Below are positions 5,293-56,552 of a stretch of 56,552 bases of DNA, piece by piece. Position numbers and translations under genes: made by a program. The stretch covers positions 1 through 56,552 of IMG/VR virus record IMGVR_UViG_3300005512_000042, one strand, 5' to 3'. The notes beneath the pieces are model-generated. The model did not search any database. It saw only the letters and a list, made by a program, of their open reading frames with translations, and was not told the origin of the DNA. The stretch comes from a virus. Taxonomy: Duplodnaviria; Caudoviricetes. Numbering within the stretch: the first letter of the stretch is position 1; each line of letters begins with the position of its first letter.

Positions 5293-5300
5293 TATTTATA
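5293..5300 (-). promoter_or_regulatory. Late promoter TATAAATA upstream of gp22
   Basis: Exact consensus in intergenic gap. Confidence 0.75.
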
Positions 5301-6246: not shown

Positions 6247-6254
6247 TATTTATA
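6247..6254 (-). promoter_or_regulatory. Late promoter TATAAATA
   Basis: Exact consensus upstream of 5959..6225. Confidence 0.7.
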
Positions 6255-6472: not shown

Positions 6473-6480
6473 TATTTATA
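6473..6480 (-). promoter_or_regulatory. Late promoter TATAAATA overlapping the gp20 stop
   Basis: Exact consensus. Confidence 0.7.
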
Positions 6481-42100: not shown

Positions 42101-45100
42101 TACGATAAGGACTTGTGTTTAAGTCATATTCCGTCTGTGTAGAATCCTCAGATAAATTAAATTCATTTGGTTTAGAGTGATAATTCTCTCCAATCAAATA
42201 TGGGAATGAAGGTCTCTTATAGTTTTGGAAAGGACCATCCGAATCTGTCAGTTCTTGATAAGTTGCAAAATATGCATAAGTTCCATTGGGGAATTCTGGT
42301 GTTATGCAATATCTTCCATTATTTTCATCCAGAACAGAAATATCATTAGTCTTATAATATACAAAGTCTTCAACAAAGAAACCGGGTGGGAATCCAGAGG
42401 GTCTATTGGGAAGAATTGAGGAAGACTCTCTATAACCAGACTTCAACTGAATTGCAACACCACCCTCTTGAGTAGAATAACCATATGGACCATAGATTGG
42501 ATTACCATCATATGCCCAACCAATAATAGGTGAGTGATTATCAGAAACTAATTCTGTGCCATTAAATCTAAGATCTGTAAGACCATAGAGTTTCTCCCCA
42601 TTTTGGTCCAGTGAATATAAACTCTTTCTGAGTTCTCTTGGTCCATACATATGAGCATATTCAATGCCATTGCTTGCCTTATTAGCAACATCAAGAATAC
42701 CATCATCAAGAGTAAAGAAATCAAAGTTTTTTGTGAATAAATTTATTTTCCATTTTTGAATATTGCAATCAAACTTTGACCTTGAAACTATCTGTGGAGG
42801 AGTTGCCGTAACAGATACGTTATCTTGATCATAACCTACTCCAGGTTCTACAACAAATATCGATACAATTCTACCATTATCCATAACAGGAGTCAGAATT
42901 GCACCATTACCTGGACCAATGATATTCAAGTCTGGAGTAGAAACATATCCAGAACCAGAATTCATTACGATAACTTCACTAATGCCTCCGTTATATACGA
43001 TAGGTTTCAATTGAGCATCTTTGCCCTGAGAGAAAGTAATGAATGGTTTTCTATGATAATTGATGATATCAGTTACACCATAACCAACACCATGATTTGC
43101 AATATTTACTGCGGTAATTTCACCACGGAAAATTGGTTGAACTCTAGCAACAAATGTTTCATTACCGGTTGAAGCAAGTCCAACTTTACCCGTAAGTGTT
43201 ACGGAAATAGGTGGATAATTGAACGTATGCGTGCCTACACCAGAATATGAGAGTTGCTTGAATTGACCTGTCTTTGCGTAGAAATCTTTCTGAATTGTTC
43301 CTGTTCCAGTTTCAGAAAGTTTGAATTTATCATTATCAACAACGGTTACATAATACTCTGTTGTAGAGTTGATACCACTAATTTGATTTGCTGTTCCTTC
43401 AGTGCTACCAAAATATTTCAGAACATCACCAGTGGTATACCCATGATTCTTAATATGAATAGTATTGTTTGAAGTTTGAATGCCTGCCGGTTGTGCAAAT
43501 GTCTTTCTATTCTGATAACCATCACCACCATCAATAATATTGAATGCTTCTACAACATTTTTCTTTGTAATGGACCTAAGAACATGTTTACCTACACCAA
43601 GACCACTATATCTAATTGTATTGATACCTGAGATAGCATCAGATAGTTTATTGTAAAGTTTGATAGTTGTAGCATCAATAGACTTCACATAATACTGAGC
43701 ATTTGTCGTAAGACCGACAATATTTCTCTGTCCGTTTGTTTTATATTGTACTACTTCAAAATCTCTAAATTTATGATAAGTAGAAAACCCAATTGTTCTA
43801 CCAGATTCAGAAAGGTTGACAAAAATGCTAGAAGACCCATCAAATTCTGTTTGATGGTCAAGCGCCTTCATCATAACTGATACAATTGCGCCAGAACCAT
43901 TACCCCCAGTAATACTTACGATTGGAGGTTCTTCATAATCAAATCCTCTATCAAGAATGCGAATTTCTTTTAAATCACCAGAAACTGCTAATGCACCTGA
44001 TGCCTGAGAACCAAAATCATCAGTAATGATCAAATTAGGTGGATTTATGACATCAAAGTTTTTATCTGTAGAAGTTACTTCAATATCTTCAATTTTTCCA
44101 TAATATACGTTATCGTGAGACTTGTAATTTAAGATTTCGACACCATTTAGCAACATTCCGGTATAACCGGAATGTGTTGGATAAATTCCACTAACTTCCT
44201 CAGGAGTATTGAACTGTCTAATCAGTTTTTGAGTAGAAAGATTTTTTTCATAGAATTGTTCTTTCTGTATTGTATTACCAGCAACCGTTACTGGTTCTTC
44301 AAGCGAAATAAACTTGGATTGGTCTGGATTTATCAAAGAGAAGTATAAATCTTGCAAACTCTGTGCAAGCTTGATGTTATTTCCGTCAACACGATATGCA
44401 TAATACAAACCATCTTCAAATAACTTAGATGCAGTCTGTAAAGAGACAGTATTTCTGTACAATTCACTATAACTTGAAATACCGACCTTCTGAGAGGAGT
44501 ACCATACCTCATCACCAGTGAAAAACCCGTGCCCGTTGACTTTGAAGGTGTCTCCTACAAAAGTTCCTGTTACTTCTTTGATGTGACTGGGAAGAAGAAT
44601 CTTATAATTTGGTAAAGATGATGATGCAATCAAAAATGAATCATCAGAGTTATCTTTATAGACTCCCTGAACATTTGAAGTCAGATTATCAAGACCTTGA
44701 TAGTAATCTGCCGCAGGTCTTTCAATATTACGTCTAAGAATATAAGTTCTTGAAATATCAAGAGTAGAATCTGCAAAAATCTTCAGAGAACGGTCATTAA
44801 TTAAAGAACCAATTCTAGAATTTACAATTAAACCATCATTTCTTTCAATTTCAACAACATCTCCAACATAAACGTAATGTGGATTATTTAAATTTACAAT
44901 ATATGAGTTATCGGACAGGTCTGCTACTGAAATAGAATTAACAGTATATACAGAGCGATTATTTGTCAACCAAGAAACTGCTTTGAACCCAGTATCACCA
45001 ATTCCAAGAGTTTTGATTCTTCCGATGTCACCTTTTCTGTAATAATGATTGTTTTCAGGAACAGATGGTAAACTTAGAATATTAGTTATTCTAACTTTAG

Positions 45101-46283
45101 TATCTCCGCTGTAAGCAAATATATCATTATCAGCGATTTCCGTTTCGCGAGGTATAGGTCTTAAAATAAGATCAGTATCAGTGAATTGAGTTAGATTTTT
45201 GGAACCATAATAGATAACACCAGACCCACCATCTCCATACTGAACAAATAAGTTGCCCGTTTGAGCAAATCCAACAGTTGAGTCAACATCAATATGTGAG
45301 GAACCTACAGCAACAGAAGTTGTGATTTTAGTTTTAGGTGTTGGTTTGAATTCACCATAAACACTACCATCAACTCTCAGGTTTCTATTGTAACCTGCAT
45401 CAATATCAAGTCGATAATAGGTTTTTCCTAATCCAGGTCTCCCAACAGTCTCTACATATGCGATTGGAGCATATGATTTTGTCGGTTTATCTTGAAAAAG
45501 TGTTAAATTGACTAGTCCTGAGGGATCTCCAGTTACTTCTTCAACAATAATACTTTCAACTTGGTCATAATTAGCATCTGAAGGTCTAAAAAGTTGCTCT
45601 GATGGAGATAAAAGTGTTACATTTTCACCATAAAGCACTTTGAACAGAATTTTAAACGATTCTTCAGTGCCTTTTGACGCATAAAAGTCTTTTGACTGCT
45701 TAACAAAGATATTTTGGTTAATACCTGAGTAAAATTCTCTGTCTTGGAACCCAGGAGCATAGGTAGCTTTGATTTTTTTAAGAAATTCTTGCAAAAACAG
45801 AACACTTAGGTTCTGAATTTCGTCTCCTTTAGAGTGTCTTTGTGAGTTTGTGTCCTCAAAAAGAACTTCTTCGGGACTTCCTTCCTTTTTGAGATCACAA
45901 ATGCCACTAAAACCTCTTACACACCCGGTAAAAGTAAAATCAGTCTTTCCAGTGTAGGTAATAACTTCATCACCAATCTTGATGAGACCATATGTGTCAG
46001 GAAAACCATATGTCCCAAGAGGAGATATCTGTTCATCGACTTCAATTGTTTTTGTAGTAGAATTTGTATTGTTTTTTAGGACAACACTGGTGTTCAGATT
46101 GGTAACATTGTCGATCTTTATATAATCATCAATATTATCAATCAAGTCTACAGGAGCACCTTGATACTCAACGCCTCTATAATACTGTTGCAGAAATTCT
46201 GCTGCTACTGGATAATCGCTCTTTACGTAGTCAGGTAACTGACTCTGAACGATAGTGCTGATTTTTACTCTTGTTTCTGTCAT
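33186..46283 (-). CDS. gp7: Giant baseplate wedge initiator, gp7-like (4365 aa)
   Basis: Between gp6 and gp8; SQLP.YV, FY.SKGTE.SFKILFK.LYG, YYQNFSYSLKS, HPVG motifs. Confidence 0.85.
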   Translation of the reverse strand: MTETRVKISTIVQSQLPDYVKSDYPVAAEFLQQYYRGVEYQGAPVDLIDNIDDYIKIDNVTNLNTSVVLKNNTNSTTKTIEVDEQISPLGTYGFPDTYGLIKIGDEVITYTGKTDFTFTGCVRGFSGICDLKKEGSPEEVLFEDTNSQRHSKGDEIQNLSVLFLQEFLKKIKATYAPGFQDREFYSGINQNIFVKQSKDFYASKGTEESFKILFKVLYGENVTLLSPSEQLFRPSDANYDQVESIIVEEVTGDPSGLVNLTLFQDKPTKSYAPIAYVETVGRPGLGKTYYRLDIDAGYNRNLRVDGSVYGEFKPTPKTKITTSVAVGSSHIDVDSTVGFAQTGNLFVQYGDGGSGVIYYGSKNLTQFTDTDLILRPIPRETEIADNDIFAYSGDTKVRITNILSLPSVPENNHYYRKGDIGRIKTLGIGDTGFKAVSWLTNNRSVYTVNSISVADLSDNSYIVNLNNPHYVYVGDVVEIERNDGLIVNSRIGSLINDRSLKIFADSTLDISRTYILRRNIERPAADYYQGLDNLTSNVQGVYKDNSDDSFLIASSSLPNYKILLPSHIKEVTGTFVGDTFKVNGHGFFTGDEVWYSSQKVGISSYSELYRNTVSLQTASKLFEDGLYYAYRVDGNNIKLAQSLQDLYFSLINPDQSKFISLEEPVTVAGNTIQKEQFYEKNLSTQKLIRQFNTPEEVSGIYPTHSGYTGMLLNGVEILNYKSHDNVYYGKIEDIEVTSTDKNFDVINPPNLIITDDFGSQASGALAVSGDLKEIRILDRGFDYEEPPIVSITGGNGSGAIVSVMMKALDHQTEFDGSSSIFVNLSESGRTIGFSTYHKFRDFEVVQYKTNGQRNIVGLTTNAQYYVKSIDATTIKLYNKLSDAISGINTIRYSGLGVGKHVLRSITKKNVVEAFNIIDGGDGYQNRKTFAQPAGIQTSNNTIHIKNHGYTTGDVLKYFGSTEGTANQISGINSTTEYYVTVVDNDKFKLSETGTGTIQKDFYAKTGQFKQLSYSGVGTHTFNYPPISVTLTGKVGLASTGNETFVARVQPIFRGEITAVNIANHGVGYGVTDIINYHRKPFITFSQGKDAQLKPIVYNGGISEVIVMNSGSGYVSTPDLNIIGPGNGAILTPVMDNGRIVSIFVVEPGVGYDQDNVSVTATPPQIVSRSKFDCNIQKWKINLFTKNFDFFTLDDGILDVANKASNGIEYAHMYGPRELRKSLYSLDQNGEKLYGLTDLRFNGTELVSDNHSPIIGWAYDGNPIYGPYGYSTQEGGVAIQLKSGYRESSSILPNRPSGFPPGFFVEDFVYYKTNDISVLDENNGRYCITPEFPNGTYAYFATYQELTDSDGPFQNYKRPSFPYLIGENYHSKPNEFNLSEDSTQTEYDLNTSPYRRITSSYNFFDKNLVYPYVFLPNDLKQTISVNFTEIDEVTKVAPENGIDGEGDFYRVGDAIFFDNAQTGGRGAAARISFVKGKTVGLITNTTSVYDIEILPSKKDGDFVAISTDPQGFANKELIQITGLSTTSNYLEGAYNIAIRPNVFTLVGLGTTTTAIEDASTTGIVTYINLINRPLIDDNIRSNDVIQINNEKMRVLNVDRESSRVKVHRERFGTTSAEHRVGTAVTVNAREFSFTAGIKTTFVSKRNKVLYFVPNESLGIGATNDLGIGKTVVFSNPGFGITSIFVPSQRIYLKDHGLETGDIVEYNRGDGNSIVYEDTNTAVGVGTTVLDGQKLYTVKFDKDMVGFATVRVALSTEGVYVGVGSTSRGSRLVYWKETGSGILHSFKTKYPTLTGKANKNLVTVSTASTHGLSSGHSININVNPSTTKDVKVAYNDYHRKLVIDPKEFSQDAVNELNDSITIINHGLKTGDKVIHTSEYPVTATTNNGIFYVVRINADKFHLSETQYDALSSVPTPVGLASTSGTIAAVNPKIDTNGNRFIRFDLSDPSLAYQASLNSKKPAFRFDIFGDKKFDRRWEKSTVRDDRLNYTIGGVVGVDGSATLRFDRETPEFLYYNLVPLNPPNETIPEQKSGYKFDMEVPNGGEILSTKSQFSGRHVSTVIGITTFTYNLPDKPERDSYRPREASLSYVTDCTHTNGPIAQIDVTNTGSGYVTSPGIATVITQNGERAILEVIGDNIGAIKKLSIDDFGYNFPYDNTLTPTIYYPQIFKIDPFASLARVGISSFGRGYTTEPNLIVLDGITEKPVDDIKLRFNFESNQVEILQNTYGINDAPPTIIPVEGGNGVRVSNLQFNQTTQRVTATLKPFYSAGEEFPFAVGDKVLAEGFVTAGIAAGIGTDLKGYNSNDFDYKLFEVVEIDPNFGGIDPTVTYDMSPALITGQVLGTYDQVNSIATLTNEKDLMTFKVDLQNNKFIPEEIVKSNGSTGIVDGWDSKRSIVRISSTDEFKSGEILVGQTSKSRGQLGELKSNFIADCKFGANIQNTKGFKTEAGFLNRNLQKIQNSKYYQNFSYSLKSRVPYEVWNDPISSLNHPVGYQKYSDHQIESTAGRNDTISGNESVLIAIKEFTTEVDINCVNYFDMVTEDAFAAQKGGLVSKEIIFNSKIIKRYQESINNRVLLIDDISSQFSHRPRNEEFVNVNKFDLDDIRAQRYFFLIRDKRFTSQRQMSTVDIIHDNNLGYINQYAILDTVGELGFFDFTVDSGEGIIRFYPNPAYVLNNDFDIVYLSYQLDDAISGVGSTSIGSLVHVNTFSTPFQAGVTTTIVSMGTSSTTQKIFLCVNPDTGETNTEFAMNTLTIVSNGVDKIEASSYGMLDTSLDDRVSSGFGTFSPIINGSNIDLQFHPSSVGVGTTGVINAIVVALADSSYTGVQTSTNPHGDTTANTTTIAASGTPTATQIASYTFVPDNDEIHGCKYNIQVADTTNNEYMSVEMSAIDTINAVGIASDVYITEYAETYTGSAGLGTFDARVRDFLHVDILFTPNPGINIVTNALQSKLKIGADLVEPSIVPLGGNKNIKRDSTTYLGTLNDVRVSFPIKHEGLRVFERVFDGSDPNIVDVDLNIIKIPNHYFATGEKVLYSRFNVNDVTSSIGIAQSTFSGIGATEYLPDATESEVYIVRVTDEEIRLAASAADAQAPVPRTLDLTTVGTGVSHKFVTTNQDARVMITVDNIIQSPIVSTAVTTALAEQMLTTKDFVRVSGITSFFSADFIKINNEIMKIASIGIATDPNVFRVQRGRVGTDLEVHGIGSTVFKVAGNYTITDSVLNFVEPPFGITPLPGNDPDEQDWTGIATGSSFHGRVFMRGPVGGAQTHSYEKNKIFDDVAPKFDGFESQFALTSGSQNVSGYTNDNAVLLINGIFQPPGLQVANTAVYRITEPSSGISSASFYGDRQAIGYDVGVSSFPRGGVIQAIGTTEGLGYQPLIGAGGTAIVSLGGTIESVSVANTGSGYRVANNYDILTDINHPIPVGFQTIYLENQNSVLGILSAYSETGTFSDHGARIAISTYMFPTPITAVGDTYVEIGVGATTGIPITSGSQVSIGITTPQLGFVNIDALIEYADVLSATYNPVTGISTITLDGEYGFEVGETIRFADGSFKFKCSSDNFQTVKSYPRPTDPTYRRPVTINVATRDTIEVNLGTSPRVYYTPTDATYDSATGILVLTIGSHNLLPTQGVSLATDSLTFTCSKDGNTTNHTYPRATDPAAGRTIDIISVTSTTITLNVGASSADDQYAHTFVSAASNALIAGGQYIHQWTGGISRKAILREGTNNRVHVGFSTIITGTGHISTASSITNPGYGFSTGVVFEGPRAYDNLPLIYSNDNGIVGPGTEATISIVVGQGSSIIDADMRNNGYSYGNNEILTVETGGLTGIPTTGSFKEFQVTIERVHGDRFNGWSIGQIQPLDSVESYIDGRRRIFPLFYQGESYTILAARGSNIDIEQTLLVFVNDVLQIPNVSYIFRGGSRIFFTEPLTVGDSLRIYFYRGNGVSDVIDRDVIQTIKEGDVVRVQSDERDLNENPRTVSEVLSSEVAETVPYYGPGNVNDPNLLRPLVWCKQTEDKFVQDNLITKDRTFYEPIINPMGNLIKNVGAADTIFYLDSVRPAFDSNLESPVNRSFQNKVTILSKNSTVAASATATVSGFGSITALTITNPGSGIGTAAVSIAATVGFGTGSGTATANLNLSGGQVVGSHIINPGAGYTRSNPPAVLITPPTTTFENCDVFSYTGDEGRIVGFATTSVSSEFRMVFDLMIPSPSLIFDTTDIITGGGIVSVTNMEVGDYFVVNNSNVGVASTSIQSLDSSGTVIGIGTEYFDNVYEVRAIHQEQVEVGGITTSVKRVHVRVEDNFPEGYDFTANSGMTTSSLYFGNYTWGKVIISLRTGSSEYTAQTMSGVGGLSTSSTVNRFEELRFANYTVQ

Positions 46284-49848: not shown

Positions 49849-50622
49849 TTAGATAATACGAGTTTTCTCATGACCAACGCGAATGCGAGGGTCGCACCAA
49901 ATCTCAAACCCTGCTTCCTTTGCATCGAGGCAAAACGACACATCCTCTCCACACATATCTTGCACATTACCAGATTCAAAAACCTGCATCTTTGGTGCAA
50001 ACCATGGATACTCAAGATTCTCAAAGACTCCCTTCTTAATCAATACCCATCCAAAACCTGTGTAATCTACGGTGAATGGTTTCTTCCGTTTTGTAATGGT
50101 TTCGACAGTTTCGTGATTCATCACTCCGCCATTACTACGGAAATCATCCTCCTCTAACCAATGTGCAACTGATGTCGTCTGTCCATCCTCTGTAGCATAC
50201 CATCCAGCAACTACCTCTCTCTCCGTACCATCTGCGGCAATTGCCATATCACATAACTGCCAGAACTTTTCAGTACTGAATACAATATCCGAGTCAATCC
50301 ACAGCTGATAATCATACTGTAACTTACCATCCCATGGCACCTGATTCGGTCCACGCAATACATTCGCACCTAAACACTTACAACGTGCGAAGTTTACCAT
50401 TGAACTATAATCTTGACTAATCTGAATGCTCATTCCATTCTGTACTAAGTCAAAACATAGTTGAACGAAATTCTTCATGAAAATATAAGAACATCCACGA
50501 CCAGGTAGACAAAATACAATCGTCTTACCTCTCATTCGTGATTTGATATCCTCAATATCCCACTCTGGTCCTTTATCCTTCTTGATTGGTGCGTTTGCTT
50601 TTACCGTAAATCCTTTTGCCAT
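49849..50622 (-). CDS. GT-A-fold glycosyltransferase-like protein
   Basis: LWIDSDIVF (DxD), TGFGWVLIK, GEDVSFC, VGHEK motifs. Confidence 0.75.
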   Translation of the reverse strand: MAKGFTVKANAPIKKDKGPEWDIEDIKSRMRGKTIVFCLPGRGCSYIFMKNFVQLCFDLVQNGMSIQISQDYSSMVNFARCKCLGANVLRGPNQVPWDGKLQYDYQLWIDSDIVFSTEKFWQLCDMAIAADGTEREVVAGWYATEDGQTTSVAHWLEEDDFRSNGGVMNHETVETITKRKKPFTVDYTGFGWVLIKKGVFENLEYPWFAPKMQVFESGNVQDMCGEDVSFCLDAKEAGFEIWCDPRIRVGHEKTRII

Positions 50623-50643
50623 AAGTCTGTGTAACTCAAATCA

Positions 50644-50672
50644 ATTCTAACATGTTATCTATACATTGTCAA
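50644..50672 (-). promoter_or_regulatory. Sigma70-type promoter
   Basis: TTGACA-17 bp-TAGAAT with extended TG. Confidence 0.85.
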
Positions 50673-50820
50673 TTAGATACGATAAATCTTTCTCATTATA
50701 ATCAGTCTTCATTAATCCTACCATCCCACGTAAACTACTCCATGTTGCCTTAAATTCTTCCTCCTTCAAATCATTATACACACACTTATCCTTAATATAA
50801 ATCTTGTACACTTTACTCAT
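50659..50820 (-). CDS. Hypothetical protein (53 aa)
   Basis: MSKVYKIYIKDKCVYNDLKEEEFKATW...GMVGLMKTDY; GGAGG SD. Confidence 0.75.
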   Translation of the reverse strand: MSKVYKIYIKDKCVYNDLKEEEFKATWSSLRGMVGLMKTDYNEKDLSYLIDNV

Positions 50821-50842
50821 AAGTTCCCTCCAGTTTTACTAT

Positions 50843-51001
50843 CTATATCAATGAGATAATCAATGCACCCACTACAATACACAATAAAAACCTTCCAGGT
50901 CCTCTCCATATTGCCATCAATATATCATAAAAAACCCGCGCAGTCACATACGTGAAAACTACACGGGGCAAATTCCAATACCGCAAATTTTTTTTACTCA
51001 C
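50843..51001 (-). CDS. Small membrane protein (52 aa, GTG start)
   Basis: MSKKNLRYWNLPRVVF...GPGRFLLCIVVGALIISLI; GAGG SD. Confidence 0.55.
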   Translation of the reverse strand: MSKKNLRYWNLPRVVFTYVTARVFYDILMAIWRGPGRFLLCIVVGALIISLI

Positions 51002-51167
51002 GCGAACCTCACAGGCATTTTTTATACATGAAAAATTTTTTGAATGAACATGTTATCACTCTCGCGATTTGTCACCTCTGTAGGTTAGGGTAGTTAGGCG
51101 TTTTTAGCCACGCCGCCCGCCGCCATCAACAACCGCACCCTAAAACACTGCGATTTGCGACACTGTG

Positions 51168-51196
51168 ATTCTAACACATCTGCGGGAGACTGTCAA
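51168..51196 (-). promoter_or_regulatory. Sigma70-type promoter driving an apparently non-coding leader
   Basis: TTGACA-17 bp-TAGAAT with extended TG. Confidence 0.85.
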
Positions 51197-51215
51197 CAAC
51201 CCCCCGCGCAATGTA

Positions 51216-51488
51216 TCAGAGTTCGTCGATCATTTGGTCCATCTCAATGATGTTGACTTTAGGGTCACGGTAGGCAACACCGTCTTTCGTAGATAGATCG
51301 TTGAAAGTACATGCTTCCAGAAAATCTACGAAGTCTCTGTAGTTACCTGCCTCGCGAGCAAGATCATAAAGACCCTCATCATTACCAATCCAAAGTGCAA
51401 TATTCCAGGTCTCATAATTGGTCCAACCGTTGTAAGTTTGGTCGGTGAGATTTGTCTGAAATGTGGTTGTCATAGAGGTTTGAGTCAT
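51216..51488 (-). CDS. Hypothetical early protein (YNGWTNYETW family)
   Basis: YNGWTNYETWNIALWIGNDEGLY motif; real start may be the second Met (51473). Confidence 0.85.
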   Translation of the reverse strand: MTQTSMTTTFQTNLTDQTYNGWTNYETWNIALWIGNDEGLYDLAREAGNYRDFVDFLEACTFNDLSTKDGVAYRDPKVNIIEMDQMIDEL

Positions 51489-51497
51489 GCTTACACT

Positions 51498-51523
51498 ACT
51501 GAGACACTTTAGAGGCTTCAGTT
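51498..51523. repeat. Intergenic 26-bp element, copy 1
   Basis: ACTGAGACACTTTAGAGGCTTCAGTT. Confidence 0.95.
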
Positions 51524-51531
51524 AGTGTTGC

Positions 51532-51705
51532 TCACCAGGTGTCAGGTGTATGCAAGTCCTCTACATATGCCTCGCAGTATTCACTACCCTCCAAACCGAA
51601 GAGTTTATCCCAGTTGATATTGTGCGGGTCGAAGTCACCTAGTGCAGTAATATCAAGAGTGATGCGATACCTTTGCTTTTGTGCTTGCTGATAGATAGTC
51701 GGCAT
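51532..51705 (-). CDS. Hypothetical protein (57 aa)
   Basis: MPTIYQQAQKQRYRITLD...; start moved downstream of the promoter. Confidence 0.8.
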   Translation of the reverse strand: MPTIYQQAQKQRYRITLDITALGDFDPHNINWDKLFGLEGSEYCEAYVEDLHTPDTW

Positions 51706-51733
51706 GATTAGAGGACCTTGGTGATACTGTGTT

Positions 51734-51762
51734 ATTATACTGTGGACCTTAGGATATTGCAA
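51734..51762 (-). promoter_or_regulatory. Sigma70-type promoter
   Basis: TTGCAA-17 bp-TATAAT. Confidence 0.8.
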
Positions 51763-51800
51763 CCGGCGACAGTCCTATTTAGAAAGTGTCACGGCGGTCC

Positions 51801-51829
51801 TTGACTTTTCGGCGGATTGGTGATAGACT
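51801..51829 (+). promoter_or_regulatory. Divergent plus-strand sigma70-type promoter
   Basis: TTGACT-17 bp-TAGACT with extended TG; preceded by GACAGT...AAGTGTC inverted boxes (51768-51790). Confidence 0.7.
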
Positions 51830-52157
51830 GCGGGCCAAGATCACTGCACTGAGAGACATTTATCAGACCTTATTAGACTACCCGATGAGGTCTTTCAGAG
51901 TGTATTCAGAGACCCTTGAGAGACACTGTGGAGCGTATCTACGACTATTTTCTTCAACTTTACAAAACACTTGTTTATATTTTTTTATACATTAAAAAAC
52001 GTTTTTTTACCTAATCTTGTATATATTCAGGTAAAAATGGGGTGATTTTGTGATAATGAAGGTCTTACACATATTGGGGAGACACACACAACCAAACCCC
52101 TCAGATGCCTATACTACACTGTTACATAAGCAATCAAATCATAGGACAATTACTGTA

Positions 52158-52331
52158 TCAAATGCTAGTAGGATTACCTTGATAATCTACCATCTCTCCC
52201 TTGTTGTCGCTGCCTTGTTGTAAACAAGCAAGACCGCAATCTTCTTCAGCAACGATGACATCCAGAATAGAAAGAATTTCATTTCCGGTGTTACCTTGAC
52301 GAAGCATACCGATGAGAACGTCTTTAGACAT
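52158..52331 (-). CDS. Hypothetical protein (57 aa)
   Basis: MSKDVLIGMLRQGNTGNEILSILDVIV...; manual translation. Confidence 0.7.
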   Translation of the reverse strand: MSKDVLIGMLRQGNTGNEILSILDVIVAEEDCGLACLQQGSDNKGEMVDYQGNPTSI

Positions 52332-52398
52332 TTTGATTAGAAAAGTGTTAGTAAGTGAGTAATGAGTTTATAGACATCATTAGGTCTAATTGATCAGT

Positions 52399-52599
52399 TT
52401 AGTTATCTTCTAATAGATGAGGATAATACTCTTGAACGTCTTCAATCAGTTCGTTAAGTGTAAGTTTATCCATATCATTTGAAAGATATTCATACAACAT
52501 TGCCATGCAATCTTTGAGGTCTAAACCATCAATAACCTCATGCACATAGTTATGTTGAAGTTCATCACGGTCGATGATTTTGTCTGTTTGAGTGTTCAT
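52399..52599 (-). CDS. Hypothetical acidic protein (66 aa)
   Basis: MNTQTDKIIDRDELQ...YYPHLLEDN; start adjusted from the track ORF. Confidence 0.8.
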   Translation of the reverse strand: MNTQTDKIIDRDELQHNYVHEVIDGLDLKDCMAMLYEYLSNDMDKLTLNELIEDVQEYYPHLLEDN

Positions 52600-52634
52600 T
52601 TGTTTATCAGGCAAAGAGGTAAGTAGCATGGACA

Positions 52635-52796
52635 TTAGTTCAGGAAACTATCAATCGTTTCACCGATTGTCAATCTTTTGTTTTCATTTGGTTCAATGAT
52701 TTCACTAACATATTGTAATGTATCAGCAGTGAATTGTCTTGCGTCAGTTGATTGCCAGAGAAGAACACCGATGATAGCAATGAGAAAAAGTTTCAT
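52635..52796 (-). CDS. Small protein with N-terminal hydrophobic segment (53 aa)
   Basis: MKLFLIAIIGVLLWQSTDARQFTADTL... Confidence 0.7.
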   Translation of the reverse strand: MKLFLIAIIGVLLWQSTDARQFTADTLQYVSEIIEPNENKRLTIGETIDSFLN

Positions 52797-52819
52797 GATG
52801 TGAGTATCAGATAAGGTAA

Positions 52820-53167
52820 TCAGGCAAAGAGATAAGAGGAGTGAAATTCTTCAGTTTTGAATACATTTTGTCCATTGATTGCACCAACGAACTTTCTTAC
52901 AAACCACTGATAATTCTTTTGGAAAACTCCTTCTCCAGCAATACAATACTCAGAGCAAAGTGCATTGAGTCGTGATTTAGTGGTTTGGGATTGATAACCA
53001 CCATCGAAGATTGTCATATCAGTGTCTGTAACCTCTGCAATTTTGTTACCGTGAAGATAAACAATAGAGGTGTTAGTTTCTTCGTCAAAGGTAACAGTAG
53101 TATTAGCAGATTGCCAGTTTTGATTGTTGTTAATGGCAGCAATCATTTGTTGTTCGATGAGGCGCAT
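52820..53167 (-). CDS. Hypothetical early protein (115 aa)
   Basis: VYLHGNKIA, DGGYQSQTTKSRLNAL, VFQKNYQWFV motifs of a recurrent phage family. Confidence 0.85.
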   Translation of the reverse strand: MRLIEQQMIAAINNNQNWQSANTTVTFDEETNTSIVYLHGNKIAEVTDTDMTIFDGGYQSQTTKSRLNALCSEYCIAGEGVFQKNYQWFVRKFVGAINGQNVFKTEEFHSSYLFA

Positions 53168-53209
53168 GATAAAAAAGTAGAGAAGAAAGTGTAAAGAAAA
53201 AACCGTTAA

Positions 53210-53398
53210 TCAACCAGAGATTTGTTGATAAAGAGTGTTGAAAGCATTGTAATCAGTGTAATAAAATGCTTGTTCTTTTTTATCCCAAAGTTGATAAGCA
53301 GAGCATCCAATTTTGAAATCATAAACAACATATTCATTGTTATGATTATCAACAACAACGGTGCCCAGTTGTTCTTTGACGAGAGTGTAATCTACCAT
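53210..53398 (-). CDS. Hypothetical protein (62 aa)
   Basis: ATG directly downstream of repeat copy 2. Confidence 0.75.
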   Translation of the reverse strand: MVDYTLVKEQLGTVVVDNHNNEYVVYDFKIGCSAYQLWDKKEQAFYYTDYNAFNTLYQQISG

Positions 53399-53427
53399 TT
53401 TGTGTGTTTGAATTGTGTGCTTACACT

Positions 53428-53453
53428 ACTGGGACACTTTAGAGGCTTCAGTT
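53428..53453. repeat. Intergenic 26-bp element, copy 2
   Basis: ACTGGGACACTTTAGAGGCTTCAGTT. Confidence 0.95.
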
Positions 53454-53482
53454 TGTATTACCGAAGGTAATATGAACGTGAG

Positions 53483-53701
53483 TTACACTCTACAATCGAT
53501 TTCACCTTTCAACAGTTTGAAACAACGATCTGCTTCGTTGAGAACATCATCATCTAACATATCCCATTCGACTTCAGCATAAGCACTAAATGCAGTCTCG
53601 TAACTACCATCAGACAACAACGGAGCATAATACAATACTGCATTATGATCAGGGTCTAATGTATAAGTGCAACCGTTAGTTTGTGAAATTAAAAAAATCA
53701 T
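53483..53701 (-). CDS. Hypothetical protein (72 aa)
   Basis: Track ORF in tightly packed array. Confidence 0.75.
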   Translation of the reverse strand: MIFLISQTNGCTYTLDPDHNAVLYYAPLLSDGSYETAFSAYAEVEWDMLDDDVLNEADRCFKLLKGEIDCRV

Positions 53702-53706
53702 AATGT

Positions 53707-53937
53707 TTAGTCGAATCGTGATCCAATGTTATCCCAACGTGTGGGTTGTTCGTAACAACGAATTTGCTCTAGAATTGAACTCTCAGAAAAACTTTGCTGG
53801 CACCAATTACCATTGTCATAAATGTCATATTGATGTGTGAGTTCTTGACTGAAACCTCTCTGATGTGTAGAGTATTTGATGTCGTAGATTTTACCTGTAT
53901 CAGGTGAAGTGAATTGAAACATAGTAGTAGTAATCAT
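53707..53937 (-). CDS. Hypothetical protein (76 aa)
   Basis: ATGA overlap with the upstream ORF. Confidence 0.75.
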   Translation of the reverse strand: MITTTMFQFTSPDTGKIYDIKYSTHQRGFSQELTHQYDIYDNGNWCQQSFSESSILEQIRCYEQPTRWDNIGSRFD

Positions 53938-54068
53938 TTTTTAGTAATGTTGCACCAACGCAGTGACTTAGGTGCTTTGCGAGCAGTCAATTTAGTGACC
54001 TTGACTTTCAAACCTTGATTGTTAAGATCTTGTGCGATTTGAGTGAGGTTGGTGAGACTTGCGTTCAT
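53934..54068 (-). CDS. Hypothetical basic protein (44 aa)
   Basis: MNASLTNLTQIAQDLNNQGLKVKVTKL...; directly after repeat copy 3. Confidence 0.65.
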   Translation of the reverse strand: MNASLTNLTQIAQDLNNQGLKVKVTKLTARKAPKSLRWCNITKK

Positions 54069-54087
54069 GGTGATGTGTTCTGTTACT

Positions 54088-54113
54088 ACTGAGACACTTT
54101 AGAGGCTTCAGTT
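54088..54113. repeat. Intergenic 26-bp element, copy 3
   Basis: ACTGAGACACTTTAGAGGCTTCAGTT. Confidence 0.95.
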
Positions 54114-54118
54114 ATGAA

Positions 54119-54343
54119 TCACCCCACAGATGCCATTTCCATATAACAATTCAAATTGCTATACTTAACAACACCATCAATATCTTTCAGTCCAATGGCA
54201 TAAACTGAACCATTGAAAACTTTGACATCTGCAACCTCATATACATTGTTACTATCATCTGCAACTTTACATCCTTTGATAGACTCAAGAATGGATTTTG
54301 CAGTGTTGCTATCAGTTTGGATCATGGTGCGATTGTTTCTCAT
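54119..54343 (-). CDS. Hypothetical protein; single-gene unit between repeat copies 3 and 4
   Basis: Track ORF; real start may be MIQTDS (54325). Confidence 0.75.
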   Translation of the reverse strand: MRNNRTMIQTDSNTAKSILESIKGCKVADDSNNVYEVADVKVFNGSVYAIGLKDIDGVVKYSNLNCYMEMASVG

Positions 54344-54346
54344 ACA

Positions 54347-54372
54347 ACTGGGACACTTTAGAGGCTTCAGTT
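54347..54372. repeat. Intergenic 26-bp element, copy 4
   Basis: ACTGGGACACTTTAGAGGCTTCAGTT. Confidence 0.95.
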
Positions 54373-54377
54373 ATGAA

Positions 54378-54725
54378 TCACCGACGATAAAGAAAACTAC
54401 CATAAGGGTCAACAATCTCAGGATTGTTTACAAGTGAATCAATGTAGAACCTGATACCTTTCGCAGGTGCTTTGTATGATGCAGGTTTATAACATGCACC
54501 ATCATTCTTATCAATAAACATAAAGCAACTACGACCGTCCTTGATAATACCATCACGGACATCTTGCTGCCAAACCTTGATATATTTCCGACCTACTTCA
54601 TATGTCAAATGTGAATGGAAATTACGACCGTTCTCAAGTGCAAGAACTTTCCACTGATTGTTGACAACTTCGAGCAGACATTCAGTGAGATATTCTGCTT
54701 TGAGTTGTGGAGCACAAAATGTCAT
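54378..54725 (-). CDS. Hypothetical early protein (GRKYIKV...YKPASYKAPAKGIRF family)
   Basis: Recurrent phage motif GRKY.K, F.DK..G..YKPAS.KAPAK..R; start probably MTFCAP. Confidence 0.85.
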   Translation of the reverse strand: MTFCAPQLKAEYLTECLLEVVNNQWKVLALENGRNFHSHLTYEVGRKYIKVWQQDVRDGIIKDGRSCFMFIDKNDGACYKPASYKAPAKGIRFYIDSLVNNPEIVDPYGSFLYRR

Positions 54726-54778
54726 GATGTTTGAAATGTGTGAAGAATTAGAATAGATTGCTGTATGTGATTGTGTCA

Positions 54779-54940
54779 TCAACCACCGAACATTTCAGTG
54801 TAGAGATCACCTAACTGTTCGTCCTTATATTGTTGACGAACTGCCGTGATTTCACGTTCAACCATACGAACCTCCTCACGTTTCATTAACAATTTGTGGC
54901 GAAGTTCAAAGAGTTTCTGATTACGTTCTGTGATTGTCAT
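54779..54940 (-). CDS. Hypothetical coiled-coil protein (53 aa)
   Basis: MTITERNQKLFELRHKL...DLYTEMFGG; directly after repeat copy 5. Confidence 0.7.
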   Translation of the reverse strand: MTITERNQKLFELRHKLLMKREEVRMVEREITAVRQQYKDEQLGDLYTEMFGG

Positions 54941-54959
54941 TTGATTGTGTGCTTACACT

Positions 54960-54985
54960 ACTGAGACACTTTAGAGGCTTCAGTT
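54960..54985. repeat. Intergenic 26-bp element, copy 5
   Basis: ACTGAGACACTTTAGAGGCTTCAGTT. Confidence 0.95.
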
Positions 54986-54986
54986 A

Positions 54987-55271
54987 CTAAACCTCTTCAA
55001 GTTCTTGTTGAAGTAACATAAACTTTTCTTCTGTAACTTCATCTACGCACTCCTGAATCACCTGATAGATGTAATCAATGTTGCTTACATCATTGAAGAT
55101 TCTTTCAGCAAGTTCAGGATGTTTGTCGCAAGGATAAGTCGGTTCGTCGTTTTCATCACGAATCATACAATCTTCGGCAGTGTAAATCCATGCCGCACAA
55201 GGTACATTTTCACCTTGCAATTCGACCATCAGATTGATACGATCTTGGAGTTGTTTGAGAGTGTAGTTCAT
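54987..55271 (-). CDS. Hypothetical protein, tandem paralogue B (94 aa)
   Basis: MNYTLKQLQDRI...; TGATG coupling with paralogue A. Confidence 0.85.
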   Translation of the reverse strand: MNYTLKQLQDRINLMVELQGENVPCAAWIYTAEDCMIRDENDEPTYPCDKHPELAERIFNDVSNIDYIYQVIQECVDEVTEEKFMLLQQELEEV

Positions 55272-55558
55272 CAAACCTCCGTTAGTTCTTGTTGACATTG
55301 CATAAATTGCTCTTCTACAACTTCATCAACACATTCCTGAATCACCTGATAGATGTAATCAATGTTGCCAACATCATCGAAGATACGTTCAAGAACTTCA
55401 GGATCTTCTACATTGTTGTTGTAATCAATCTCACCATCTTCATCCTTCAAATGACAATCGTGCTTAGTGTAAATCCATGCTGCACAATGTGCATCTTCAC
55501 CCTGTTGTTCGATCAGGTTTGTGATACGATCTTGGAGTTGTTTGAGAGTGTAGTTCAT
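55271..55558 (-). CDS. Hypothetical protein, tandem paralogue A (95 aa)
   Basis: MNYTLKQLQDRI...CAAWIYT...NIDYIYQVIQECVDEV. Confidence 0.85.
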   Translation of the reverse strand: MNYTLKQLQDRITNLIEQQGEDAHCAAWIYTKHDCHLKDEDGEIDYNNNVEDPEVLERIFDDVGNIDYIYQVIQECVDEVVEEQFMQCQQELTEV

Positions 55559-55722
55559 CAGTTTTCTTCCTGAACAGTGATAATGTGAAAGTGAGGATTG
55601 TTACGACGACAGTTAGCAATCGCATCCTCTCTTGTAGGAGCAATGTAACCTAAAATATCATAGTTTTGATAACCATTAGGTCGGATAAATTCTCCGTAAA
55701 TTAGAAACTTAGGTTCGTTCAT
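55558..55722 (-). CDS. Hypothetical protein (54 aa)
   Basis: MNEPKFLIYGEFIRPNGYQNYDILGYIAPTREDAIANCRRNNPHF...; directly after repeat copy 6. Confidence 0.7.
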   Translation of the reverse strand: MNEPKFLIYGEFIRPNGYQNYDILGYIAPTREDAIANCRRNNPHFHIITVQEEN

Positions 55723-55749
55723 AGTGTGTTTTGATTGTGTGCTTACACT

Positions 55750-55775
55750 ACTGGGACACTTTAGAGGCTTCAGTT
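55750..55775. repeat. Intergenic 26-bp element, copy 6
   Basis: ACTGGGACACTTTAGAGGCTTCAGTT. Confidence 0.95.
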
Positions 55776-55776
55776 A

Positions 55777-55932
55777 CTAAACCTCCTTAATTGCATCAAT
55801 AACAAACTCTTTTTCAGTAGAATGAATATGATTAACACAATCATCCATGTCGATACATTCTTCAACGATGATAAACTTGAGTTTATCGGGATTGTCTATT
55901 TGTGAAAGTCGAGCTTGAAAAGTTTTCATCAT
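55777..55932 (-). CDS. Hypothetical protein (51 aa)
   Basis: MMKTFQARLSQIDNPDKLKFIIVEEC...IKEV; stop abuts the repeat. Confidence 0.7.
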   Translation of the reverse strand: MMKTFQARLSQIDNPDKLKFIIVEECIDMDDCVNHIHSTEKEFVIDAIKEV

Positions 55933-56081
55933 TTTGGGCAATCAGGGTGAAAAGTAAATGATTCGCATGTTCTGTTTGAAAACATCTTAGCATCACGATC
56001 TGCTAGGAATTTAAGATAACTTCCAAGAGCAAGACAGATCAAAATTCCAGTGATACCGTATTTTGTGATTTTAGAATACAT
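55929..56081 (-). CDS. Small membrane protein (50 aa)
   Basis: MYSKITKYGITGILICLALGSYLKFLADRDAKMF... Confidence 0.65.
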   Translation of the reverse strand: MYSKITKYGITGILICLALGSYLKFLADRDAKMFSNRTCESFTFHPDCPK

Positions 56082-56238
56082 TGGTCCAACGTGTATGATT
56101 TGCTTTGGTAATTCTACCCTCTGCTAACATATTATCACATACTCGACAGAAAACTTGAAACTTTTCTTCCCTTGTGAGTGCATGTGGTTGAGCACAAGTT
56201 GCAATCACCTTGAGCATTTGTGTTTTAGAAGTGATCAT
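56071..56238 (-). CDS. Hypothetical protein (55 aa)
   Basis: MITSKTQML...LTREEKFQVFCRVCDNMLAEGRITKANHTRWTNVF. Confidence 0.75.
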   Translation of the reverse strand: MITSKTQMLKVIATCAQPHALTREEKFQVFCRVCDNMLAEGRITKANHTRWTNVF

Positions 56239-56369
56239 TTGTTTAGAAAGTGTGCTTCAATAATGTCTAAAATCTCACTACATTCATCAGCAGAGTCTTC
56301 ATCTATCAACACAGAATAATCCTCAACTGCTTCACTAATGAGTTCTAATTGTCGGTCAGTAAACATCAT
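56235..56369 (-). CDS. Hypothetical acidic protein (44 aa)
   Basis: MMFTDRQLELISEAVEDY...; ATGA overlaps on both sides. Confidence 0.65.
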   Translation of the reverse strand: MMFTDRQLELISEAVEDYSVLIDEDSADECSEILDIIEAHFLNK

Positions 56370-56552
56370 CTTAGAACGTGACGATAATCGATGGAATTGA
56401 TGCACCAACCTGTTGCATTTGTAATCTCTTCAATGAGATCATCTTCATCATCTGCTTCCCAGATTTGACCGATTGTTTCATCAATAATAGTTTGAAAATA
56501 TCCTGGTTCCTTATCATAGGAAGCAGAATCATCAAAATCAAACTCAATTTCA
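56366..56552 (-). CDS. Hypothetical acidic protein (5' end outside the window)
   Basis: ...EIEFDFDD...IWEADDEDDLIEEITNATGWCINSIDYRHVLR. Confidence 0.75.
   Translation of the reverse strand, partial: EIEFDFDDSASYDKEPGYFQTIIDETIGQIWEADDEDDLIEEITNATGWCINSIDYRHVLR

Follow-up and report, generated by a model that had tools for sequence, protein, structure and literature searches.

The window analysed here is the whole of a viral contig (IMG/VR record IMGVR_UViG_3300005512_000042; 56,552 bases, estimated 27% complete) from a T4-like Synechococcus cyanomyovirus, whose closest isolates, S-SM2, S-B05, Bellamy, and SynMITS9220M01, are only ~77% identical to it in structural genes, and it carries six copies of a 36-nt intergenic element that stand at the boundaries of units of small genes. 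Our best explanation, to which we give an even chance and which is drawn from sequence comparison, is that the element represents a distinct and widespread class of promoter with a lineage-specific box, and that it is also a substrate for homologous recombination resembling the early-promoter stem-loop (PeSL) cassettes of T4-type phages. The gain, loss, and replacement of units at the element is a pattern seen directly when relatives are compared. The original prediction, made from the window alone, had described an array of small-gene cassettes delimited by an imperfect palindrome and had proposed a combined expression and recombination site for gene shuffling; the promoter-like features and an enrichment of breakpoints at the element bear this out in part, while the idea of a dedicated recombination system finds no support.

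The repeat array is real and far beyond chance. The 26-nt pattern by which it was recognized matches the plus strand at 51498, 53428, 54088, 54347, 54960, and 55750, with 0 mismatches each to the degenerate pattern, and has zero matches in 100 dinucleotide-preserving shuffles. As had been reported, the copies are spaced by 1930, 660, 259, 613, and 790 bp, all six lie on the same strand and between genes, and their 26-nt sequences differ at a sole A/G position. No seventh copy is present in the window, even when the centre and right box defined below are searched alone at ≤3 mismatches. The six copies fall within 4.3 kb, and because the array ends <800 bp from the end of the contig, it may extend past it. 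Since the ORFs (open reading frames) of the region all use the minus strand, this is the direction in which the element is to be read, as AACTGAAGCCTCTAAAGTGTCYCAGT and then AGTGTAAGCA, the former being present in every copy and the latter following it in four of the six. Read in this direction the 36-nt element is tripartite, with a left box (AACTGAAGCCT), an invariant centre (CTAAAGTGTC), and a −10-like right box (TAGTGTAAGCA). The left box is ~11 nt long and contains a 7-nt lineage-specific core, CTGAAGC in the window; the centre is an invariant 10 nt, CTAAAGYGTC; and 4 nt further on lies the right box, TAGTRT(R)AGCA. From copy 6 to copy 1, the distances from the preceding stop codon are 1, 1, 5, 5, 29, and 8 nt, and those from the 26-nt core to the next ATG are 27, 19, 3 (or 21), 19, 29, and 9 (or 24) nt. 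The copies, and one hairpin beside them, are as follows.

55740-55775, minus strand: copy 6, with left box at 55765-55775, centre at 55755-55764, and right box at 55740-55750 (TAGTGTAAGCA); 1 nt past the stop of ORF 55777-55941, with the ATG at 55722 27 nt on.
54950-54985, minus strand: copy 5; 1 nt past the stop of ORF 54987-55298, with the ATG at 54940 19 nt on.
54337-54372, minus strand: copy 4, right box TTGTAT; 5 nt past the stop of ORF 54378-54782.
54078-54113, minus strand: copy 3, right box TAGTAA; 5 nt past the stop of ORF 54119-54343, with the ATG at 54068 19 nt on.
53457-53473, minus strand: 7-bp AT-rich stem-loop between the stop codon and copy 2, with no T-run after it.
53418-53453, minus strand: copy 2; 29 nt past the stop of ORF 53483-53701, with the ATG at 53398 29 nt on.
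51488-51523, minus strand: copy 1; 8 nt past the stop of ORF 51532-51762.

Copy 2 is the only one of the six with such an upstream hairpin, and at copy 1 the first ATG of ORF 51216-51488 lies within the right flank of the element, with a second in-frame ATG 15 nt later. Flanking sequence is shared among the copies in a mosaic fashion, with 92% identity between copies 5 and 6 over 66 nt, a common upstream flank (GGTGATTCAT) in copies 3 and 4, and a downstream leader or flank common to copies 2, 5, and 6.

The element is not confined to the window. Public viral contigs include 30 stretches with an exact match to its 19-nt core, at up to 12 copies per stretch, and when 5 substitutions are allowed there are 144 instances in 31 sources, on one strand only within each source. 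Of these 144, 137 fall outside called ORFs; the median distance downstream to the next called ATG is 22 nt, and that back to the preceding stop codon is 1 nt, the element's own TGA serving as the stop 22 times and T+AA 21 times; a stop this close leaves no room for a separate terminator. The element is found at only 124 of 502 gene junctions, which fits a signal at the heads of operons and not one placed before each gene, and the units so delimited hold 1-12 genes in the window and its relatives. Across 115 distinct instances of 46 nt, little or no change is seen in AACTGAAGC and TAAA, conservation at most positions of the left box and centre is 94-100%, and the right box TAnTnT retains its T, A, and T in 99, 87, and 87% of cases, with AAGCAC conserved beyond it; part of this conservation is built in by how the instances were found, though the spread of the allowed mismatches is still informative. 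Positions 21-22 vary inside single genomes, which argues for position-specific selection and not for blanket homogenization.

In cultured relatives the same architecture occurs with another left box. Ahead of small genes, 12 copies lie at 36.3-50.0 kb in SynMITS9220M01 and 10 at 47.2-58.5 kb in S-SM2, and both phages have the centre CTAAAGYGTC and the right box TAGTRT(R)AGCA at identical spacing with different left sequences, ATRTTACTCACCT in one phage and AAGGGGGGTCGC in the other. The most repeated 12-mers genome-wide in both isolates come from the element. Exact 12-mers reveal no comparable intergenic repeat in Syn9 or Bellamy, and the centre is not enriched at ≤1 mismatch in Syn9, S-PM2, S-B05, Bellamy, or S-SCSM1, where a differently spelled element is possible. 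A scan of the viral collection with the centre and right box only returned at least 120 stretches, and the 142 sources (a few of which are two stretches of one contig) contain 524 instances, whose left 10-mers form 19 clusters that include the following.

Left-box cluster ACTGAAGCCT: 205 instances.
Left-box cluster TTACTCACCT: 121 instances.
Left-box cluster CTTGGATCCT: 44 instances.
Left-box cluster AGTGGGCCCT: 38 instances.
Left-box cluster GGGGGGACGC: 35 instances.
Left-box cluster TTAGGATCGT: 26 instances.
Left-box cluster ACTGTCCCCC: 15 instances.
Left-box cluster GGGGGAGCCC: 13 instances.

Unrelated left-box classes number about 10, each with a 7-nt variable core between A(A) upstream and CC(T) downstream. 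Between classes the boxes are unrelated in sequence and composition, yet inside a class they are fixed, and 79 of the 87 sources with at least three instances have at least 80% of them in one cluster. Such class-specificity points to a reader that differs between lineages. On a tree of a co-located protein the classes cluster, with 11 changes compared with 29.8 when labels are shuffled, and the class of the window is paraphyletic there, with some sister contigs differing in class, so whole sets of copies have switched class more than once.

With regard to promoter function, three kinds of promoter-like site occur in the window, namely late-type sites (TATAAATA), sigma-70-type sites, and the six elements. 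The earlier view that the element is more than an ordinary sigma-70 promoter agrees with a generic consensus scan, which none of the six copies passes (no copy reaches 9 of 12) and in which two canonical promoters that adjoin the array score 11 of 12. The latter are the near-consensus sites already reported nearby, TTGACA-17-TAGAAT with TG, on the minus strand at 51196->51168 and 50672->50644. The best sigma-70 reading of the element is CTGAAG-17-TAGTGT, and the described decay of its −10 is reproduced, to TAGTAA in copy 3 and TTGTAT in copy 4. The T4-type late box TATAAATA is absent from the array, where the centre of the element reads CTAAAGTG; the four exact late-type sites (2622-2629, 5293-5300, 6247-6254, and 6473-6480) are in the structural module on the minus strand, which is the coding strand, where T4-type late promoters would be expected, and their total is no higher than chance (4 vs 4.05 expected). 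If TAGTRT is taken as the −10 with a 17-nt spacer, the variable core falls at ~−35 to −29 and the centre at ~−26 to −17. Alternatively, TAAAGT could be the −10, which would place the start at the conserved purines A23/G24, but the centre in S-SM2 is often TAAAGC, with the final T missing, and this favors the geometry with TAGTRT as the −10. In the model that we prefer, the element would stand at the head of transcription units that each comprise between one and about a dozen small genes, without known function, in a variable region, host RNA polymerase would use the −10-like box, and transcription would start ~7 nt past the right box if TAGTRT is indeed the −10 hexamer. The left box would be read by a factor that differs between phage lineages and is most likely phage-encoded, making the box comparable in function to an activator box that replaces the −35 element. 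A phage-factor-dependent promoter had been offered as an alternative in the original prediction, and it fits a lineage-specific left box attached to a shared remainder.

Promoter motifs of the temporal expression classes were reportedly found to be separate in the Syn9 transcriptome of Doron et al. in 2016. In the available text of a review, cyanomyoviruses are described as having sigma-70-like early promoters, with the mechanism of early and middle transcription unclear, and T4-like cyanophages as lacking the T4 proteins that modify or redirect the host polymerase (PMC2984593); the available text of the S-SM2 genome paper presents generic promoter models only (PMC3037559). A full-text search for the centre and left-box strings gave nothing relevant among the matches listed, and an earlier description, for example in supplements, is possible.

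A simpler interpretation, possible but to our minds clearly less probable than the lineage-specific promoter, is that the element is an ordinary early promoter for the host polymerase that involves no phage factor. Its identity among copies would then come from the descent of cassettes together with recombination or gene conversion, homogenizing the copies within a genome and between co-infecting relatives, and the left box would be a passenger. Marine picocyanobacterial promoters often have no recognizable −35, and no factor for the left box was found (see below). Flanks are shared in mosaic form by copies 5 and 6, by 3 and 4, and by 2, 5, and 6, recombination between copies is evident, and T4-type phages recombine via patches of <50 bp, according to the available text of PMC2839356. 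However, the left box is invariant in the 115 distinct instances, which come from contigs with genes sharing no more than ~70-88% identity with the window, and together with the variation of positions 21-22 within genomes this argues for selection on the left box over homogenization of whole tracts. An ordinary promoter also sits poorly with the failure of all six copies in the sigma-70 scan when near-perfect canonical promoters are nearby, and with left boxes that are mutually unrelated between classes yet fixed within each.

The sense-strand position of the element raises the alternative that it acts in RNA. It is strictly on the sense strand, between a stop and the next start, 18-31 nt ahead of most start codons, its match to sigma-70 promoters is poor, and the AAGCAC conserved after the right box could be leader RNA, so that it might be a processing, stability, or translation signal within polycistronic transcripts, or the site of a phage RNA-binding protein. 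We consider this unlikely. The element lacks conserved secondary structure and covariation, there are no Rfam matches in 50000-56552 at E up to 1, its occurrence at only 124 of 502 junctions does not suit a general intercistronic signal, and boxes such as the conserved TAnTnT and TAAAGT are what promoter signals in DNA typically contain.

The structural tests also bear on the palindrome, which had been put forward as a functional hairpin. The inverted arms do exist as letters in the window, and the variable A/G faces a T on the plus strand as had been stated, but the symmetry is weak and is not conserved in relatives. There, the right arm is variable (CCTAGT is commonest, followed by CYCAGT, CCCTAT, CCCTGT, and others), the commonest variant breaks the stem, and the other left-box classes have no palindrome or dyad at all. 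For the gene strand, 75.0% of cells across the 115 sequences are paired at the eight proposed positions, which is exactly the shuffle mean, with 0 compensatory pairs and with two inner pairs open in 89 and 107 of the 115 sequences. On the plus strand pairing is 79.5%, again the shuffle mean, with one compensatory cell in 920, and the fourth pair is A.C in 54 of the 115. Folding is similarly ordinary, with RNA z-scores of −0.4 to −1.7 (one of −2.6 owing to flank, and +0.4 on the plus strand) and DNA folding energies of −0.1 to −3.4 kcal/mol that lie inside the shuffle range. A conserved hairpin, whether of RNA or DNA and on either strand, is rejected on the pair counts and folding, and the palindrome as a functional feature finds no support.

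Comparison of close relatives shows how the units change. When gene order is mapped for 31 sources, with 533 ORFs in 86 families from a crude ORF caller that accepts ATG only and ≥35 aa, a shared backbone emerges in which whole element-bounded units are inserted, lost, replaced, and reordered, along with indels within units. Adjacency is kept in 208 of 545 comparisons (38%) at element junctions vs 824 of 1364 (60%) elsewhere, the pairwise counts not being independent of one another. Between contig pairs ≥93% identical there are 21 recent events, counted as distinct indels or replacements, and by a 15-nt criterion both breakpoints are near an element in 8, one is in 3, and neither is in 10; one of these last 10 has a variant element of opposite strand at its boundaries, and counting it brings the both-ends total to 9 of 21. 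The zone within 15 nt of an element takes up only 3.2% of bases. The suggestion that breakpoints fall on the element therefore holds as a strong enrichment but not as a rule, since 9 of the 21 events occur without it. In one instructive pair, contig L068 has two direct copies around a 434-nt cassette, and L077 has a single hybrid copy with matching flanks; joint overlaps at element-bounded events are 29-50 nt. In a seawater contig of run X1 a stretch of exactly 613 bp is missing, beginning immediately past copy 4 and ending at the equivalent register past copy 5. Other metagenome contigs have copies directly before the genes at 52820-53167 and 54378-54782, as in relatives, whereas the window has an extra small ORF ahead of each, and tandem "empty" element pairs are present in contigs of two studies. 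Joints in metagenome contigs that go back, as mini-circles from exchange between neighboring copies would give, are explained equally by tandem copies or by the other arrangements of relatives.

Not all of this turnover involves the element. Contigs of all three DNA studies show a 213-bp skip between 18-nt repeats (52606-52623 and 52819-52836), a 245-bp replacement in metagenome contigs is unrelated to the element, and other short direct repeats, of 7-18 nt, bound similar events, which indicates that short direct repeats in general serve as sites of recombination in this region. Among them the element is the longest and most frequent, and its siting lets exchange occur without disrupting genes or their expression. 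The window encodes UvsW and UvsY. We infer that homology alone, with no dedicated enzyme, drives the exchange, in that the ~40-nt direct repeats at unit boundaries would allow general homologous recombination between copies, and this would delete, insert, or replace whole units.

An integron-like, site-specific system, in which a recombinase or nuclease would cut the palindrome and move cassettes, is largely refuted, and we regard it as very improbable. The imperfect palindrome in the version found in the lineage of the window, the exact register of cassette differences between copies, and the tandem empty pairs are what such a system would explain. Set against these are the lack of conservation of the palindrome on both strands in relatives, its ordinary DNA folding, its absence from other classes, the involvement of other 7-18 nt direct repeats in like events, and the 29-50 nt joint overlaps, which are a signature of homologous exchange. 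Moreover, Phage_integrase (PF00589), Resolvase (PF00239), and Y1_Tnp (PF01797) are absent from the window (27% of a genome) and from the two complete element-bearing genomes, S-SM2 and SynMITS9220M01, in searches whose controls were positive in 14, 12, and 6 of 14 genomes, respectively. The earlier remark that no recombinase is visible in the window thus holds for the tyrosine, serine, and Y1 HUH families, and for these families it extends to the two complete genomes as well.

For the lineage-specific promoter that we prefer, the corresponding question is what reads the left box. A T7-type RNA polymerase (PF00940) is absent from S-SM2, SynMITS9220M01, and the window, by a search that finds the Syn5 polymerase at E 4e-77, and MotA and AsiA (PF09114 and PF09010) are absent from the same three, with T4 positive at E 3e-63 and 2e-43. 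Of 255 ORFs in SynMITS9220M01, seven are common to S-SM2 and absent from Syn9 and Bellamy, and no DNA-binding or sigma family is represented among the seven. Just one candidate co-occurs widely, a basic protein of 201 aa (SynMITS9220M01 40815-41420; L158:815-1420; homologues include L032:2021-2578), which is present in 63 of 140 sources and in 10 left-box classes and is absent from Syn9 and Bellamy. Members of its family are 160-310 aa long, contain much K, R, G, and Q, share the conserved start MKTFxxF...EAYD, and match no Pfam or PHROG family. The tree of the basic protein follows the left-box classes only to the extent expected of shared ancestry.

This very basic protein of unknown function, with its presence across 10 left-box classes, could also be invoked for a different proposal, that the element is a DNA-binding site with another role at unit boundaries, such as a shut-off operator, an insulator or hairpinless terminator, or a mark recognized by a protein that modifies or protects DNA. 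An operator that overlaps a promoter would be expected at the position of the invariant centre. We find this proposal more doubtful than a signal in RNA: no copy has a terminator-like feature (a scan gave 2 such sites vs 3.0 expected, neither at an element), the strict co-orientation with genes and the fixed distance to the start codon are needless for such roles, and the basic protein lacks a confident fold.

Several observations weigh against a lineage-specific promoter that doubles as a recombination substrate. The searches for a factor gave none, and for the basic protein, as the sole candidate found in many sources, the predicted model has a pTM of 0.21 and a mean pLDDT of 64.8, with no compact or confident fold. 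The hexamers of the element are poor matches to the sigma-70 consensus, and its most conserved block, the centre, would fall in the promoter spacer, a conservation for which this geometry does not account. The left-box classes track phylogeny, as any inherited trait would. Nine of the 21 recent events do not touch the element, the adjacency counts are subject to their mutual dependence and to the crude ORF caller, and the breakpoint enrichment could reflect selection, with insertions at operon boundaries being tolerated, and not mechanism. Finally, the lone RNA run (share 0.06) has contigs over parts of 52634-52775, 53186-53399, 55053-55712, and 56382-56550; the sequencing data are assembled contigs (24 runs), which do not resolve RNA ends, DNA carry-over is possible in the RNA run, and parts of the array without RNA cover do not indicate silence.

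That the element delimits gene units in the window, as had been claimed, is seen in the following arrangement, to which a repeat that is not part of the element is added.

54987-55722, minus strand: unit of copy 6, with three small ORFs (55558-55722, 55271-55558, and 54987-55298), the last two tandem paralogues.
54378-54940, minus strand: unit of copy 5, with ORFs 54779-54940 and 54378-54782 (DUF7717).
54119-54343, minus strand: unit of copy 4, with one 74-aa ORF.
53483-54068, minus strand: unit of copy 3, with ORFs 53934-54068, 53707-53937, and 53483-53701.
51532-53398, minus strand: unit of copy 2, with six ORFs, including Kyano_Gp96 (52820-53167) and DUF7326 (52399-52635), and a 395-nt ORF-free gap.
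52606-52623 and 52819-52836, minus strand: 18-nt direct repeat, unrelated to the element, that flanks a 53-aa ORF (52635-52796).

The cassette genes are without known function. The unit of copy 5 plus one copy of the element makes up the 613-bp cassette that is missing from a relative's contig. The tandem paralogues in the unit of copy 6, 54987-55298 (103 aa) and 55271-55558 (95 aa), have ~81% nucleotide identity and are members of PHROG 1255, a family without known function that in relatives usually supplies the last gene ahead of an element and turns up in different units from contig to contig. Within the ORF-free gap inside the array (51763-52157, 395 nt), a block at 51771-51862 outscores neighboring genes in conservation (92% in L031) and holds a conserved plus-strand sigma-70-type promoter, TTGACT-17-TAGACT with TG, at 51801-51829, which could drive an antisense or small RNA; the block has neither conserved structure nor an Rfam match. 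After the minus-strand promoter at 51168-51196 come ~170 nt of G+C-rich sequence (about 51000-51165) that contain short ORFs only and could be a leader or small RNA. No tRNA genes are present in the window. Outside the array, two giant minus-strand ORFs, 33186-46283 (4365 aa) and 24029-31594 (2521 aa), lie beside the baseplate genes gp6 and gp25, and their Pfam matches are to a YHYH domain and DUF4815 only. In SynMITS9220M01, a 354-aa ORF at 114362-115426 (L161:14362-15426) is 91% identical in S-SM2, is absent from Syn9 and Bellamy, and has a weak match to the Druantia DruA family (E 8e-10).

For the timing of early and middle transcription in T4-like cyanophages, the element is a concrete, abundant, and easily recognized candidate signal, present in at least 120 viral stretches from public metagenomes. 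Its presence in the cultured phages S-SM2 and SynMITS9220M01 makes it testable at the bench, and the lineage-specific box predicts an unknown specificity factor. A bolder extension, which is tentative and which we would not expect to hold in full, is that many marine T4-like cyanophages have a private promoter code, consisting of the shared core and the 7-nt box at the −35 position, with a co-evolving phage-encoded reader that is perhaps delivered in the virion. If so, the factor would be the counterpart of sigma appropriation in phages that have no MotA, AsiA, Alt, or Mod, and because the element is also a recombination joint, only phages sharing a box would exchange expressed cassettes, such that the left box would define gene-exchange groups among co-infecting cyanophages. 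The turnover of cassettes bears on how marine phages renew their small host-interaction genes, and even as a mere repeated promoter of the host type the element would be a useful annotation mark for unit boundaries.

Among known systems, integrons are similar in having an array of small gene units and a recurring separator site with some dyad symmetry. Integron attC sites are conserved in structure and not in sequence, whereas the reverse is true of the element, which in addition has no integrase, lies upstream of and co-oriented with its genes, and is promoter-like. Promoter families of the T7 group have a shared core and, upstream, a short region conferring specificity, which varies from one related phage to another but is uniform per genome, and the logic of a shared core with a specificity box is the same in the element. 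The difference is that no such polymerase is present in S-SM2, SynMITS9220M01, or the window, T4-like myoviruses using the host polymerase. In halovirus HF2, a tailed virus, long (29-58 bp) near-identical intergenic repeats occur among early and middle genes and were shown to be promoters by reporter assay (Russ et al. 2021, PMC8707807); HF2 is an archaeal virus with TATA/BRE-type promoters, and the available text of that paper does not describe a lineage-specific box or cassette shuffling.

Within the T4 group, middle promoters would be similar in combining a −10-like box, if TAGTRT is the −10, with a box in the −35 place that is not of sigma-70 type, and in heading early or middle genes, including small genes in variable regions. 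The box of the element is unlike the TGCTT Mot box, as given in the available text of PMC4122927, and varies by lineage; MotA and AsiA are absent here, and the element has an additional invariant centre. The PeSL elements are composite cassettes of an early promoter and a terminator stem-loop, with modular shuffling described between RB49 and phi1, T4 and PST, and KVP40 and nt-1 in the available text of Arbiol et al. 2010 (PMC2839356) and Comeau et al. 2014 (PMC4122927). Judged by those accounts, the element differs in having no stem-loop terminator, with the upstream stop abutting or overlapping it, in hexamers that are far from the sigma-70 consensus where PeSLs have near-consensus −35 and −10 sequences at 17-nt spacing, in its far stricter conservation, with a 10-nt centre invariant across lineages, and in a lineage-specific box of a kind not described for PeSLs. 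Cyanophages are left out of the PeSL papers in the text available, the word "cyanophage" being absent from that of PMC2839356, and for S-PM2 the density of PeSLs was judged too low, according to the available text of PMC4503421. The likeness to PeSLs as described in these sources is nevertheless extensive, as both are repeated, directly oriented, promoter-type elements among small genes of unknown function in variable regions, in both the copies bound insertions, deletions, and replacements between close relatives, with one hybrid copy at empty sites, and for neither is a dedicated recombinase known, in phages with T4-type recombination machinery. The window appears to hold the first dense promoter-cassette array of the PeSL kind in cyanomyoviruses, with gain, loss, and replacement of its units visible at the level of single bases.

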